Assembly (NCBI GenBank): GCA_963808235.1
Contig: CAWEEQ010000004.1
Coordinates: 320,001 to 384,000, forward strand
Direction of reading: 5' to 3'
DNA length: 64,000 nt
Source: an uncultured delta proteobacterium
GTDB lineage: Bacteria; Desulfobacterota; Binatia; Binatales; Binataceae
Part shown: positions 38,194 to 51,361 of the stretch, one piece after another
How positions within the stretch are numbered: position 1 is the stretch's first letter
Layout of the letters: each line of letters begins with the position of its first letter
Made by a program: the position numbers and the translations under genes
The notes under the pieces: model-generated
Told to the model about the DNA's origin: nothing
Seen by the model: the letters and a program-made list of their open reading frames with translations, nothing else
The model's database searches: none

Positions 38194-39072
38194 TTAGATC
38201 GTATCCGACACGCCTGGGATGAACAGCGGCGCCATTTCGTAACGCGCGACGTCGCGCTCCAGCTCGCTGCGCGCGGGCGCTTTGACGGCTTCGCTCGCCG
38301 CGTCGAGGATGCCGCGCAGCAGGCCGGCGTCGCTCGATGAATTAAGGAACAACCCGGGCCGGCTCAGAACGAAGTGCACCGCGCGGCGAATCGCATCCTT
38401 GTCGCGCAGCGGCTCGTACCAGCTGAATTTGCGCTCCGTGCCGTTTTGCCAGCGCCGCCGTGCGACTGACTTGATTGTCTGAGTTGCCACCGAGCGCTGA
38501 TTGCAAAGTTTGAGCAGCGCCTCCGCGTCCTCGGCATACTGACCGATCCCCAACATCGTGAAGTTGTACGGAAATAGCACCGAGTCGAAGGCGAAACGCC
38601 CCAGGCTCTTGAGATGCATCGCGGCAACGCGAGTGCCGTGACCGGTGACTCCGATAAACTTGACCAGCCCCTGCGAGCGCGCTTCGACCAGCGCTTCCAG
38701 CGCCCCATGCGCGCCCGTCGCGGTCTCCCACTCCTTCTCGTCGACCAGGTTGTGCATCTGGATCATGTCAACCTGATCGACGCGCAGCCGTTCGAGCGAT
38801 CGATGCAAACTCGCGCGCGCGCCCTCGTAGCTGCGCTCTCCGGTCTTGGTGGCGACGAAGAAACGTTTGCGATGCTCCCGCATCCACGGACCGATCCTCA
38901 ACTCCGAATCGCCGTACGACGCCGCAGTATCGATATGGTTGATGCCGTATTCGAGCAGCACCTCGAGCACCTGGTCGGCTTTCTCCTGCTTCATCCCGCC
39001 GAGCGCGGCGGCGCCGAAAATCACTCGCGTGCTCTGATGACCGGTTTTTCCAAACGGAGCTGATTCGATCAT
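38194..39072 (-). CDS. Aldo/keto reductase
   Basis: IDTAASYG.SE, ATK, SLERL, QMH, IGVTGH. Confidence 0.9.
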   Translation of the reverse strand: MIESAPFGKTGHQSTRVIFGAAALGGMKQEKADQVLEVLLEYGINHIDTAASYGDSELRIGPWMREHRKRFFVATKTGERSYEGARASLHRSLERLRVDQVDMIQMHNLVDEKEWETATGAHGALEALVEARSQGLVKFIGVTGHGTRVAAMHLKSLGRFAFDSVLFPYNFTMLGIGQYAEDAEALLKLCNQRSVATQTIKSVARRRWQNGTERKFSWYEPLRDKDAIRRAVHFVLSRPGLFLNSSSDAGLLRGILDAASEAVKAPARSELERDVARYEMAPLFIPGVSDTI

Positions 39073-47034: not shown

Positions 47035-47175
47035 AACGATCCTCGCAACTTCCGATATTGTTCGGCTGCGCGGTAACGCGTTCCCTCGGCCATCAATAGC
47101 CTACCAGAAAGTCCGAAAGATAACTGCAAGGAGACGAGCCCGCTTTGGCCTTGTCTGACATGGCAGCGTCGGGAC

Positions 47176-47291
47176 AAAAAATGGCCGGGCTACGAGTGGG
47201 GACCGCGGGTGGGGGACCAACGGTTCATGTAGCCCGGCCTGGCTTGGGGACAGGCGCTGTTGGTCTCGGGGGAGGAGATTGTCAGCGCTGA
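47176..47291 (-). ncRNA. Candidate sigma54-dependent small RNA with C-rich motifs
   Basis: Sigma54 motif 12 nt upstream; stem-loop with a CUCCCCC loop; GGCCGGGCTAC/GTAGCCCGGCC stem followed by AU6. Confidence 0.65.
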
Positions 47292-47301
47292 GACTAAGAT
47301 G

Positions 47302-47318
47302 AGCAAACAATGTGCCGA
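47302..47318 (-). promoter_or_regulatory. Sigma54 (-24/-12) promoter
   Basis: TCGGCACATTGTTTGCT, exact GG-N10-GC spacing. Confidence 0.7.
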
Positions 47319-47438
47319 CAAAAATGGCCACCAAAGCAAGCATTTGTCGATCCGGTATTTTTCTCGTTTTGCAATCAGAGCAGTCCGCACGCCTCCGAAC
47401 TGTGCTTCTTTCCACGAGAACATGATGATTTTGCAAGT

Positions 47439-47477
47439 TGCGAGACAAGTCGCACTCGCGCCTCATTCGTGAGACGC
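47439..47477. promoter_or_regulatory. Paired palindromes, candidate enhancer-binding-protein sites
   Basis: TGCGA-gacaag-TCGCA (47439-47454) and GCGcCTCA-ttcg-TGAGaCGC (47458-47477), about 150-185 nt upstream of the predicted start. Confidence 0.45.
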
Positions 47478-47762
47478 ATGCCCCCGGATGCATCCAACCG
47501 ACTGCGGCCAACGGCAGCTCTCGTGATGCGTCGTCATATAATGTCCGCGAGGCACATCTCACTGACTCGCGATCGCACCGCGTCTTCAACCCGACCACCC
47601 GCGCGAAACGAATCGCAAATCATTCGTCGTCGCGAAATTCGACTCGACCGATTCAGTTCATCTGATGCGGTTCGTCGCGAATCGTCTGACGACGCGAGAC
47701 TTTCACGCCGATTTTTCGCTTCGGTTGAGAGCCCAGCGTCCCTGTGTTAATTCCTATGGGCT

Positions 47763-47836
47763 CGGGGCGTAGCGCAGCTTGGTAGCGCACCTGCCTTGGG
47801 AGCAGGGGGTCGGCCGTTCAAATCGGCTCGCCCCGA
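47763..47836 (+). tRNA. tRNA-Pro(TGG)
   Basis: Acceptor CGGGGCG/CGCCCCG, anticodon arm CCTGC-CTTGGGA-GCAGG, TTCAAAT T-loop; CCA not encoded. Confidence 0.95.
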
Positions 47837-47838
47837 TC

Positions 47839-47915
<77 letters not shown>

Positions 47916-47976
47916 CGGTACCGACGGCTTTAAGATTGAAGACTGGCCGATCCCGAATTGGAATAGAGCGATGGGT

Positions 47977-48053
47977 GGTGAGTGTAGCTCAGTTGGCAGA
48001 GCATCGGATTGTGGCTCCGGCGGTCGAGGGTTCAAATCCCTTCACTCACCCCA
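47977..48053 (+). tRNA. tRNA-His(GTG)
   Basis: G-1, GTGAGTG/CACTCAC, TCGGA-TTGTGGC-TCCGG, C discriminator, CCA. Confidence 0.95.
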
Positions 48054-48089
48054 AAACATCCTGCTACGTAAGGTTGGCATTGACACGGT

Positions 48090-48165
<76 letters not shown>

Positions 48166-51345: not shown

Positions 51346-51361
51346 AGCAAGCCGGGTGCCA
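51346..51361 (-). promoter_or_regulatory. Sigma54 (-24/-12) promoter
   Basis: TGGCACCCGGCTTGCT, full consensus, about 25 nt upstream of the FAD oxidase start. Confidence 0.65.

Follow-up and report, generated by a model that had tools for sequence, protein, structure and literature searches.

A predicted sigma-54-dependent small RNA with exposed C-rich motifs represents an uncatalogued RNA family of the Binataceae

Layout of the locus and predicted architecture of the RNA

The DNA analysed here (the window) is a stretch of 64,000 nucleotides from a Binataceae genome. On its plus strand, the tRNA cluster Pro(tgg)-Arg(tct)-His(gtg)-Lys(ctt) occupies positions 47762..48165 and provides a divergent syntenic landmark that is not part of the RNA described below. 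The minus strand carries a predicted sRNA of ~116 nt (47291-47176), whose 5' end was placed by the geometry of the promoter and whose 3' end was placed by the terminator, and, ~190 nt past that terminator, a 215-aa ORF whose N-terminus resembles that of a lipoprotein (46984-46337). Upstream of the predicted start, on the same strand, lie a sigma-54 -24/-12 promoter, TCGGCACATTGTTTGCT (47318-47302; GG at 47316-47315, GC at 47304-47303), and a dyad-like element, TTGCAAAACGAGAAA (47374-47360), which is a candidate site for an enhancer-binding protein and is centred at about -76 from the predicted start. A sequence-only reading had placed a sigma-54-driven sRNA here, and direct inspection of the minus strand recovered its promoter, hairpins, C-runs and terminator, all at the positions it had given.

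The RNA is predicted to comprise a 5' hairpin with a CUCCUCCCCC loop, a single-stranded UCCCCAAGC linker and a long terminator hairpin that encloses a small hairpin with a CCCCC loop. All of its parts are on the minus strand. Stem-loop 1 (47251..47290) has an outer stem GCGCUG/CAGCGC and an inner stem UCUC/GAGA; in DNA letters it runs CAGCGCTG.../...CAGCGCCTG, with TCTC/GAGA enclosing the CTCCCCC loop as previously described. C-rich motif 1, CUCCUCCCCC (47277-47268), forms the loop of this hairpin. The linker UCCCCAAGCCA (47240..47250) harbours C-rich motif 2 (CCCC, 47249-47246). In stem-loop 2 (47183..47239), an 11-bp basal stem, GGCCGGGCUAC/GUAGCCCGGCC, which is also the terminator stem, encloses the inner hairpin CCGUUGG...CCGCGG, whose loop is C-rich motif 3 (CCCCC, 47211..47215); the lineage-specific C-rich motif 4 (CCCC, 47201-47198) lies in the 3' internal loop. 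The three GTCCCC copies reported earlier (CTGTCCCCAA, GGTCCCCCAC and GGTCCCCACT) are present on the minus strand; the C-run of the third copy, motif 4, is kept in only 38 of the 83 aligned family copies. The same reading had passed over the first hairpin loop, CUCCUCCCCC, as the strongest C-rich motif.

The minimum free energy of the 120-nt RNA is -48.2 kcal/mol, compared with -28.5 +/- 3.1 kcal/mol for 200 shuffled sequences, none of which folds as well (z -6.5). The claimed intrinsic terminator is present in the window as a G+C-rich 11-bp stem (GGCCGGGCTAC/GTAGCCCGGCC in DNA letters) followed by ATTTTTT, that is, an AUUUUUU tail at 47176..47182, and ends at 47176; a simple terminator scan passed over it, since that scan allows loops of at most 8 nt and this one is longer. 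A tail T-run of at least 4 occurs in 56 of the 83 copies and is absent in 27, some genera having a C/U-rich tail.

Matches to the locus in sequencing libraries came from five runs, each containing 2 of 10 sampled words. At 85% likeness all contigs of these runs stem from relatives, and they cover only 47173-47290. The sole RNA-library contig (X1, from a relative) measures 262 nt at a depth of 2.2 and extends from 47280 to 155 nt past the terminator; libraries of this kind may contain DNA.

Distribution and structural conservation of the family

By blastn, 23 of 24 genomes of the same genus match, and they do so over query 177-332 alone, which corresponds to window positions 47324-47169 and thus to promoter plus RNA; none of 16 genomes from other genera of the class does. 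With the covariance model R1, copies were detected in 20 of 30 genera, namely in 110 of the 150 Binataceae genomes that were sampled. A draw across the class returned it in 14 of 17 Binataceae genomes versus 0 of 133 elsewhere, and a draw across the phylum in 0 of 150. Among the genomes searched the RNA was seen only in Binataceae, and not in Rhodobacterales or Rhizobiales; one genome carries three tandem copies. The RNA had been taken as unannotated and an Rfam scan proposed as a check: Rfam 15 gave no match at gathering score and nothing above noise at E<=10. We regard as noise a flg-Rhizobiales match, which is on the wrong strand and reaches 14.8 bits against a gathering score of 55, and two eukaryotic lncRNA models at E<=10, far below their gathering scores.

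A pattern scan over 185,579 species produced 102 stretches, of which 80 are listed. Among the matches listed, MAGs labelled Trebonia, Desulfovibrio, Tepidiformaceae and Solirubrobacterales score only 7-10 bits under the model; for MAGs that bear the labels Streptomyces, Kribbella and other Actinomycetota, no model match was obtained at E<=1, and both groups were attributed to chance. A further match among those listed, L110 with a Pseudolabrys label, has no model match. Two genomes outside the family (G025 and G297) reach 28-29 bits with model R2 (E ~0.005 per genome), and G331 reaches 23.6 bits at a site that lies directly after a tRNA and has no GG-N10-GC in front; all three were taken as chance. 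This is a previously uncatalogued RNA family that, as far as genome searches tell, is specific to the Binataceae (Candidatus Binatus and related genera).

A covariance model built from relatives, a further check proposed earlier, demonstrates that promoter and stems are conserved across the 83 copies. In the alignment, compensatory (double) changes affect 17 of 26 base pairs; there are 101 double-change cells, compared with 16.4 +/- 3.3 in shuffles, and 0 of 500 shuffles reach 101. Pairing is retained in 98.3% of alignment cells, and sliding the partners by 1-3 columns lowers this value to 28-50%. In stem-loop 1, compensatory changes are found at 6/6 outer and 3/3 inner pairs; in stem-loop 2, they are found at 5/6 pairs of the inner hairpin and 3/11 basal pairs, the terminator stem being the most invariant part of the RNA. 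Since compensatory changes occur in four helices, we conclude that selection acts on the RNA structure.

These changes also speak against the view that the locus encodes no functional RNA and that the conserved block either codes for a small protein or serves the neighbouring tRNA operon as an element at the DNA level. Such a view could draw on the tRNA neighbourhood, which, in accord with the divergent arrangement noted before, is fixed in 69 of the 83 copies, and on long spurious ORFs of 77 and 165 aa that overlap the region. However, the distance between RNA and tRNA varies from 240 to 1280 nt, and 13 copies remote from any tRNA still keep promoter and structure. Furthermore, no conserved ORF exists inside the RNA: lengths and frames differ among the 83 copies and six of them lack any ORF, as anticipated by the earlier statement that no credible ORF fits the ~116 nt. 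We therefore regard the absence of a functional RNA as highly improbable.

Sequence conservation spans the region from promoter to terminator and then stops, as would be expected of the discrete structured RNA first proposed; together with the RNA's own promoter and terminator, these boundaries appear to fit a discrete transcript outside any mRNA. Were the element instead a cis-acting 5' leader, its attenuator or terminator would control the 215-aa ORF (46984-46337), which has the same orientation, follows at short distance and is syntenic within the genus. By tblastn, however, this ORF adjoins the RNA only in genus-level loci; outside the genus the downstream gene differs while RNA and promoter persist. 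In addition, conservation ends at the terminator, neither the minimum free energy fold nor the consensus structure shows an alternative anti-terminator, and no part of the RNA varies less than the terminator stem, all of which makes a cis-acting leader very unlikely.

The promoter and its upstream element

GG-N10-GC is kept at a fixed distance upstream of the RNA in 83/83 copies. The match is GG[CT]A[CT]-N5-T[TG]GC in 80 copies and GGCGC-N5-TTGC in the other three, and the motif is located 19-23 nt before model position 1, with a spacer sequence that varies freely. In the window the extended GGCAC/TTGC form spans 47316-47303 with GG and GC exactly 10 nt apart, and the family alignment upholds its original assignment as a sigma-54 promoter. 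The window contains GGCAC-N5-TTGC three times, where 0.83 occurrences would be expected, and 5 of 100 shuffles reach this count; the pattern by itself is not beyond chance there, and we judge the promoter to be real because it is conserved across the family copies. No sigma-70-like site was found on the minus strand near the start. The genome contains one Sigma54_DBD match, that is, one rpoN, a gene present in 59 of 61 family genomes, as well as 19 strong Sigma54_activat matches. The locus is very probably a genuine sigma-54-driven RNA gene.

Sigma-54 initiation requires an ATP-dependent enhancer-binding protein, and transcription that starts at this promoter would share this need. The protein most likely binds the dyad-like element ~76 nt upstream of the start. 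In the family this element takes the form TYGCA-N5-xGAA, with a clear TTCGC-N5-GCGAA dyad in several genera, and scores at least 13 of 15 in 82/83 copies versus 81/1660 control windows. It begins 55-60 nt before the -24 GG in 70 copies, 69-71 nt in six, 90-92 nt in six and 66 nt in one, a spacing that would suit an activator bound to a fixed face of the helix. When sequences before sigma-54-like motifs in the genome were scanned with the consensus, 15/15 was attained at the sRNA promoter only, which hints at a dedicated activator; eight further sites score 13/15, about chance level. A hemerythrin-like gene with similar spacing, retrieved by a looser regular expression, has a consensus score below 13. 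The 1.5 kb around each copy contain no Sigma54_activat-like gene. The activator may be any one of the ~19 candidate enhancer-binding proteins in the genome.

The sequence-only reading had assigned the enhancer sites to two palindromes farther upstream (47439..47477, minus strand), an assignment that did not hold. On visual inspection neither is perfect (7 of 8; arms of 5-6 nt), a repeat search at seed 6 does not contain them and blastn aligns the region in only 1 of 23 relatives; the conserved element is that at 47374-47360 instead. The palindromes are weak, not conserved and probably outside the system.

Exposed C-runs, candidate targets and related RNAs

The predicted unpaired probability is 1.00 for motif 1, 0.99 for motifs 2 and 3, and 0.78 for motif 4. 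A C-run of at least four is kept at motif 1 in 79/83, at motif 2 in 75/83 and at motif 3 in 83/83 copies; three C-runs are thus family-wide and predicted to be unpaired. At its 3' end the 16S of this organism has GGATCACCTCCTTTCT, with the tail CACCTCCTTTCT; CCUCC, which forms the core of this anti-Shine-Dalgarno sequence, recurs in loop 1, and CCTCC is found in 44 of the 83 copies. The linker is the most sequence-conserved unpaired stretch, its CCCAAGC being invariant in 24 genus copies. Hfq scored above the Pfam cut-off in none of 61 family genomes, while all five positive control genomes were detected; this genome, which is 93% complete, has none over the cut-off.

Contiguous complements of loop 1 of at least 9 nt are present at 37 of 8159 ORF starts, compared with 9.1 +/- 5.8 (maximum 32) for 200 shuffled loops, in a coarse ORF set that has 8159 candidates where roughly 4000 genes are expected and takes the start with the best Shine-Dalgarno sequence; complements of at least 10 nt occur at 11 starts versus 2.3 +/- 2.3. 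This enrichment is partly trivial because loop 1 contains an anti-Shine-Dalgarno core. The other seeds are not enriched, with 10 matches for the linker, 10 for loop 3 and 8 for segment 4, against 15.4, 20.6 and 11.3 when shuffled.

The best duplex in the genome involves GUCUCGGAGGGAGGAGAU, which immediately precedes the GUG start codon for a BBP2 (OmpL-like) porin of 485 aa, and consists of 17 bp with one bulge. Complements of at least 7 nt are kept in 17 and of at least 9 nt in 5 of 30 porin orthologues, which are related sequences and not independent trials, against a background among ORF starts of 4.7% and 0.45%, respectively. Genera with a differing loop, such as g124, have no matching change in the porin site, and porin orthologues also occur in genera in which the RNA was not found (g180, g183 and g187). 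Of the candidate targets in this genome the porin mRNA is the strongest; we consider it doubtful that the porin is a true target. Strong Shine-Dalgarno sequences are expected in porin genes anyway. A site in a transglycosylase gene is kept in G017 and G350 and weak in G328, G214 and G335. As a set, the candidate targets lean toward envelope proteins. A naive ranking of duplexes is dominated by GC-rich stem sequences. Two of the top candidates, L241 and L242, lack orthologues in five other genomes, and for a further candidate, L243, orthologues occur only within the genus.

The mode of action that we favour is base pairing of the exposed C-runs with mRNAs at their G-rich ribosome-binding regions, which would block translation initiation; such pairing would be independent of Hfq, which is undetectable in the family. 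This proposal, of which the sequence-only reading had already given the outline, fits the data because the C-runs are exposed and conserved, loop 1 carries an anti-Shine-Dalgarno core and is enriched at ORF starts, and Hfq was not found. Likewise, accessibility and conservation of the C-runs, the loop 1 enrichment and the porin site are what a conserved accessible seed would be predicted to display. We consider action by anti-Shine-Dalgarno-type pairing reasonably likely.

CsrB/RsmZ-type and CrcZ-type RNAs sequester protein partners, and a decoy reading, in which the sigma-54-driven RNA uses its C-runs to titrate a C-rich-RNA-binding protein or a G-rich RNA, would resemble these. In favour of this reading, a single short motif recurs at several exposed positions, as is typical of RNAs that sequester a partner, one genome holds three tandem copies, and ORF-start enrichment is seen for loop 1 only and not for the linker, the most conserved unpaired stretch. 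On the other hand, no protein partner for the CCCC motifs was identified here, nor do we know of one in bacteria, and the exact anti-Shine-Dalgarno core in loop 1 together with the 17-bp match at a start codon is more simply explained by mRNA pairing. In agreement, the known C-rich sRNAs cuckoo/NfeR1 and RsaE/RoxS act on ribosome-binding sites (PMC4615179; 10.1101/2025.11.14.688489). A decoy or sponge is hence improbable, and we favour, as the probable explanation of the whole, a stand-alone gene for a trans-acting sRNA of ~116 nt, specific to the Binataceae, driven by sigma-54 and acting by anti-Shine-Dalgarno-type pairing.

In a more far-reaching and rather unlikely version of this sRNA model, the RNA would be the sole output of a dedicated switch of enhancer-binding protein and promoter, comparable to LuxO-Qrr, and would serve as an anti-Shine-Dalgarno mimic in an Hfq-less lineage that throttles envelope and secreted proteins. 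On signal, 30S subunits would have to contend with the mimic for those ribosome-binding sites that are strongest and G-extended, so that porin, lytic transglycosylase and secreted proteins would be throttled together. If true, this would represent global, chaperone-free translational control in uncultured Binatia.

A full-text literature search on Binatota sRNAs and Binatia sigma-54 found no paper on Binataceae regulatory RNAs. Among the closest counterparts are the alpha-proteobacterial cuckoo RNAs (CcsR1-4/RSs0680a-d of Rhodobacter and alpha-r14/NfeR1 of Sinorhizobium), which carry the motif CCUCCUCCC in their loops (PMC4615179; 10.1101/2025.11.14.688489). PMC4615179 depicts them as two to four adjacent hairpins with the same loop motif in each, and reports that RSs0680a binds Hfq. 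Both groups expose an anti-Shine-Dalgarno-like C-rich motif, several per RNA, and the cuckoo RNAs act at ribosome-binding sites, as the RNA here may do; its loop 1, CUCCUCCCCC, is nearly identical to CCUCCUCCC. Here, however, the CCUCC form is confined to loop 1, the other C-runs being CCCC(C) in the linker and the nested hairpin, and the RNA is branched, whereas the cuckoo hairpins are serial. The groups also differ in promoters (RpoHI/HII for CcsR and LsrB/NtrC control for NfeR1, versus sigma-54 here), in taxa (Rhodobacterales and Rhizobiales versus Binataceae) and in Hfq, which RSs0680a binds and which was not found in Binataceae; no Rfam model matched.

Qrr1-5 of Vibrio are trans-acting sRNAs of ~100 nt with sigma-54 promoters and the dedicated enhancer-binding protein LuxO; they resemble the Binataceae RNA in promoter class, in length and in a copy number that varies between species. 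They show no sequence or structure match to it in Rfam, including at E<=10. Furthermore, Qrr RNAs are Hfq-dependent, whereas Hfq was detected in 0/61 Binataceae genomes, and they are not built around C-run loops; the Binataceae activator is not encoded nearby. A LuxO site consensus was not found in PMC2680268 or PMC11407668. In RsaE/RoxS of Firmicutes and other Staphylococcus sRNAs, unpaired C-rich motifs pair with G-rich Shine-Dalgarno sequences and Hfq is uninvolved (PMC6158497, PMC8216469 and PMC4615179). With these the RNA has in common several unpaired C-rich motifs and a lineage in which Hfq would play no role; phylum, fold and promoter type differ, and there is no Rfam match.

GlmY, CrcZ, NrsZ and Pxr are sigma-54-dependent sRNAs with upstream activator site logic, and GlmY and CrcZ act by sequestering proteins; the promoter class is common to them and the Binataceae RNA, but sequence, fold and mechanism are unrelated and no Rfam match was obtained. 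MicA, RybB and OmrA/B are enterobacterial, Hfq-dependent envelope regulators under sigma-E or OmpR. Should the porin and the transglycosylase prove to be true targets, both groups would have one output in common, repression of outer-membrane and envelope proteins at ribosome-binding sites, although these RNAs are unrelated in sequence to that of the Binataceae, whose target set is predicted.

The Binataceae are abundant in soil, and all that is known of them comes from metagenomes. For them, the present work provides a defined RNA family that is ready for curation and heterologous tests; it is documented by an alignment of 83 copies with covariation and by a promoter and a candidate activator site. 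Because the working principle is already known, its value lies in a solid new family and an entry into the regulation of an uncultured group. As a kind of RNA it is familiar and brings no conceptual surprise; as a family it is new, and it would extend sigma-54-gated sRNAs and C-rich anti-Shine-Dalgarno seeds to a new phylum-level lineage seemingly without Hfq.

Architecture and covariation of the RNA

On the minus strand of the window, the sigma-54 -24/-12 promoter TCGGCACATTGTTTGCT (47318-47302) is followed ten bases on by a first hairpin with outer stem CAGCGCUG/CAGCGCCUG, inner stem UCUC/GAGA and loop CUCCCCC. An unpaired linker, UCCCCAAGCCA, leads to an 11-bp stem (GGCCGGGCUAC/GUAGCCCGGCC) enclosing a smaller CCCCC-loop hairpin and another CCCC, and the terminator tail AUUUUUU ends at 47176. 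Promoter, hairpins, C-runs and terminator are all present where the sequence-only reading had placed them. The folding energy of the 120-nt stretch is -48.2 kcal/mol, compared with -28.5 ± 3.1 for shuffles (z -6.5), and the fold prediction leaves all four C-runs unpaired with probabilities of 0.78-1.00. At the locus, ARAGORN and Rfam detected only the tRNAs Pro, Arg, His and Lys on the opposite strand (47762-48165); Rfam 15 yielded no match to the RNA even at E<=10, in keeping with the novelty first proposed. tRNA-Pro and tRNA-Arg adjoin without a spacer at 47838/47839 (ARAGORN coordinates), as in several relatives; 1-3 nt separate them in others.

In the 83-copy alignment A2, which is fitted to the model and thereby biased towards the structure, 98.3% of cells pair, and in 17 of the 26 pairs both bases have changed. 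Double-sided changes occur in 101 cells versus 16.4 ± 3.3 in shuffles, the observed values being reached by none of 500, and pairing falls to 28-50% when the 3' partners are slid by 1-3 columns. The covariation comes from all four helices; in the basal terminator stem the lower seven pairs are near-invariant and the upper three covary. No ORF inside the RNA is conserved across copies, in agreement with the claim that none is credible. A relative's copy is represented in one soil RNA library by a contig of low depth, which extends past the terminator. Copies from genera g130 and g186 (loci L072-L074, L089-L092, L098 and L099) carry a C/U-rich tail (for example, AATCCCATCCT) and no U-run after the terminator stem; either these copies terminate differently or their tail is an additional C-rich motif.

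Distribution in the Binataceae

In a blastn search of 47150-47500 against 40 relatives, matches came from 23 of the 24 same-genus genomes and from none of the 16 representing other genera of the class. Alignments always covered query 177-332 (promoter and RNA) or 213-325 (RNA alone). In the genus alignment, the GGCAC and TTGC blocks are invariant, their 5-nt spacer is free to vary and the flanks are variable. R1, a covariance model built on 24 genus copies, located the RNA in 110 of 150 genomes and 20 of 30 genera of a family draw; among genomes at least 90% complete and at most 5% contaminated, 78 of 95 were positive (own genome counted). In a class draw, R1 was positive in 14 of 17 family genomes and in 0 of 133 from 18 other families, and in a phylum draw in 0 of 150. 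The broader model R2, from the 83 copies, changed the outcome little: in the class draw it again recovered 14 of 17 in the family, with two matches of 28-29 bits elsewhere that we take as chance, and on five genomes of five genera without the RNA it gave nothing convincing. All sets are sampled draws, so that a negative states that the searched genomes gave no hit, without implying absence. Seven unpublished genomes (G018, G023, G330, G349, G351, G364 and G375) are counted in these numbers, and no conclusion rests on them; two of them are contained in the 24-copy alignment and R1, none in A2 and R2. Promoter and stems are conserved in relatives, as the proposal of an sRNA locus implied.

The divergent tRNA cluster, described from the window, lies beside 69 of the 83 copies; of the remaining 14, 13 lack any tRNA within 1.5 kb and one has the cluster on its downstream side. 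The downstream 215-aa lipoprotein-like gene is a neighbour within the genus only. Genuine copies (L120, L155, L161, L125) also turned up in MAGs that carry the labels Nitrospiraceae, Acidiferrales, Thermodesulfobacteriota and Proteobacteria, probably because the labels are outdated or Binataceae contigs were mis-binned; the RNA could therefore be a lineage marker. G262, which belongs to a different genus of the family, has the RNA in triplicate, in tandem at ~220-nt intervals (L039:1501-2059). A GGCAT-N5-TTGC promoter precedes each of copies 1 and 3; none is obvious at the middle copy, whose loops CUCCCUCCUCC and CCCUCCUCCC come closer still to the cuckoo motif.

Promoter and upstream element

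Taken alone, the promoter pattern could arise by chance: the window has 3 matches, with 0.83 expected. Across the copies, GG-N10-GC is kept in 83 of 83, as GG[CT]A[CT]-N5-T[TG]GC in 80 and GGCGC-N5-TTGC in the other three. The motif lies 19-23 nt ahead of model position 1, which puts the predicted start ~12 nt past the GC, near 47291. The own genome (4.59 Mb, four contigs, 93% complete, ~60% G+C) encodes one rpoN and 19 strong enhancer-binding proteins; motif conservation and rpoN together uphold the proposed sigma-54 promoter. In none of the genomes examined does an enhancer-binding-protein gene lie closer than 1.5 kb to the RNA. Two further exact GGCAC-N5-TTGC matches lie on the minus strand of the window at 51347-51360 and 38624-38637; the former, ~22 nt upstream of the start of a 462-aa ORF (51325-49937, minus), may from its sequence be a further sigma-54 promoter.

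Every copy carries an upstream element, TYGCA-N5-xGAA, which in several genera is a clear dyad, TTCGC-N5-GCGAA; the window has it as TTGCAAAACGAGAAA (47374-47360, minus). A score of 13 or more out of 15 is reached by 82 of the 83 copies and by 81 of 1660 control windows. The distance from its start to the GG is 55-60 nt in 70 copies, 69-71 in six, 90-92 in six and 66 in one; the steps come to about one and three turns of the helix, which is what an activator facing the polymerase would require. The two palindromes originally singled out at 47439-47477 did not hold up, being imperfect, absent from the repeat search and not conserved. In the own genome, a sigma-54-like motif and a perfect copy of the element, whose consensus derives from these very sRNA promoters, occur together only at the sRNA promoter, which is no more than a hint of a dedicated activator. 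On the minus strand of contig 1, near 363591, a GGCAT-N5-TTGC motif with the element TCGCAGAAGCAGAA 59 nt upstream belongs to a hemerythrin-like gene (judged by eye as HHE-type). The spacing equals that of the sRNA locus, and the gene may be a second regulon member or the match may be due to chance. Many non-genus copies share another conserved motif, rich in A/T (such as AAATCAGGTAGTTAG and AAATCAATGTGTTAC), ~105-125 nt upstream of the -24 GG and ~50 nt upstream of the dyad element, in the window at roughly 47415-47430; we take it to resemble a candidate DNA-bending-protein site.

C-runs, candidate targets and known systems

Of the four C-runs, three are conserved family-wide: the inner loop of hairpin 2 retains its run in all 83 copies, loop 1 in 79 and the linker in 75. 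The fourth survives in 38 of them. Within loop 1, CUCCUCCCCC, lies CCUCC; the same five bases form the core of the anti-Shine-Dalgarno tail with which the organism's 16S rRNA ends (...GGAUCACCUCCUUUCU). Hfq was not found in the own, 93% complete genome, and 0 of 61 family genomes (46 of them at least 90% complete) had a match over the Pfam cut-off, with control genomes positive; the Binataceae may lack this chaperone altogether. In the simplest reading, the exposed C-runs would form G-C-rich pairs with ribosome-binding sites independently of a chaperone, and such an anti-Shine-Dalgarno-type mechanism is moderately supported. Pairing of this sort has been established for cuckoo/NfeR1 RNAs (PMC4615179; preprint 10.1101/2025.11.14.688489) and for RsaE/RoxS (PMC6158497, PMC8216469).

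Targets were sought in a crude gene set, 8159 ORFs of at least 90 aa with high GC3. Contiguous complements to loop 1 of at least 9 nt occur at 37 starts versus 9.1 ± 5.8 for 200 shuffled loops, none of which reaches 37, and complements of at least 10 nt at 11 starts versus 2.3 ± 2.3 (2 of 200 reach 11). The other three C-rich segments show no enrichment at the starts of this set; the enrichment for loop 1 would fit the proposed pairing with G-rich initiation regions. The best duplex in the genome is with GUCUCGGAGGGAGGAGAU (17 pairs, one bulged A), directly ahead of the GUG start of a 485-aa protein with a signal peptide and a BBP2 (OmpL-like porin) domain (E 5e-65). Orthologues occur in 36 of 60 family genomes; at the best 30 loci (own gene counted), a complement of at least 7, 8 and 9 nt is kept at 17, 7 and 5 starts, against backgrounds at ORF starts of 4.7%, 1.5% and 0.45%. 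This would support the porin as a target only weakly, because the orthologues are mutually related, the genes have strong Shine-Dalgarno sequences anyway, no co-variation with loop variants was seen and the porin is also present where the RNA was not found. In many orthologue leaders (L209-L238), a small hairpin of GC-rich sequence (GGCCG...CGGCC or GCGGC...GCCGC) stands just 5' of an extended GGGAGGAG ribosome-binding site, and a conserved GAGUGAA start context lies 3' of that site. The lytic transglycosylase leader UCUCGGGGGAG is kept in two of five other genera and weakened in three. By eye, ~10 of the 19 top candidates begin with a signal-peptide-like sequence, and the predicted targets are suggestive of an envelope theme.

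Gene, structure and promoter of the RNA are strongly supported. Our searches found no literature on sRNAs of Binatota or sigma-54 in Binatia (subscription journals lay outside their coverage). The predicted anti-Shine-Dalgarno mode is that of cuckoo-type or RsaE-type RNAs and the sigma-54 switch that of Qrr, but architecture, taxon, Hfq dependence and Rfam all speak against membership of the cuckoo, RsaE or Qrr families: the RNA is a genuine new family with a working principle of a known kind.
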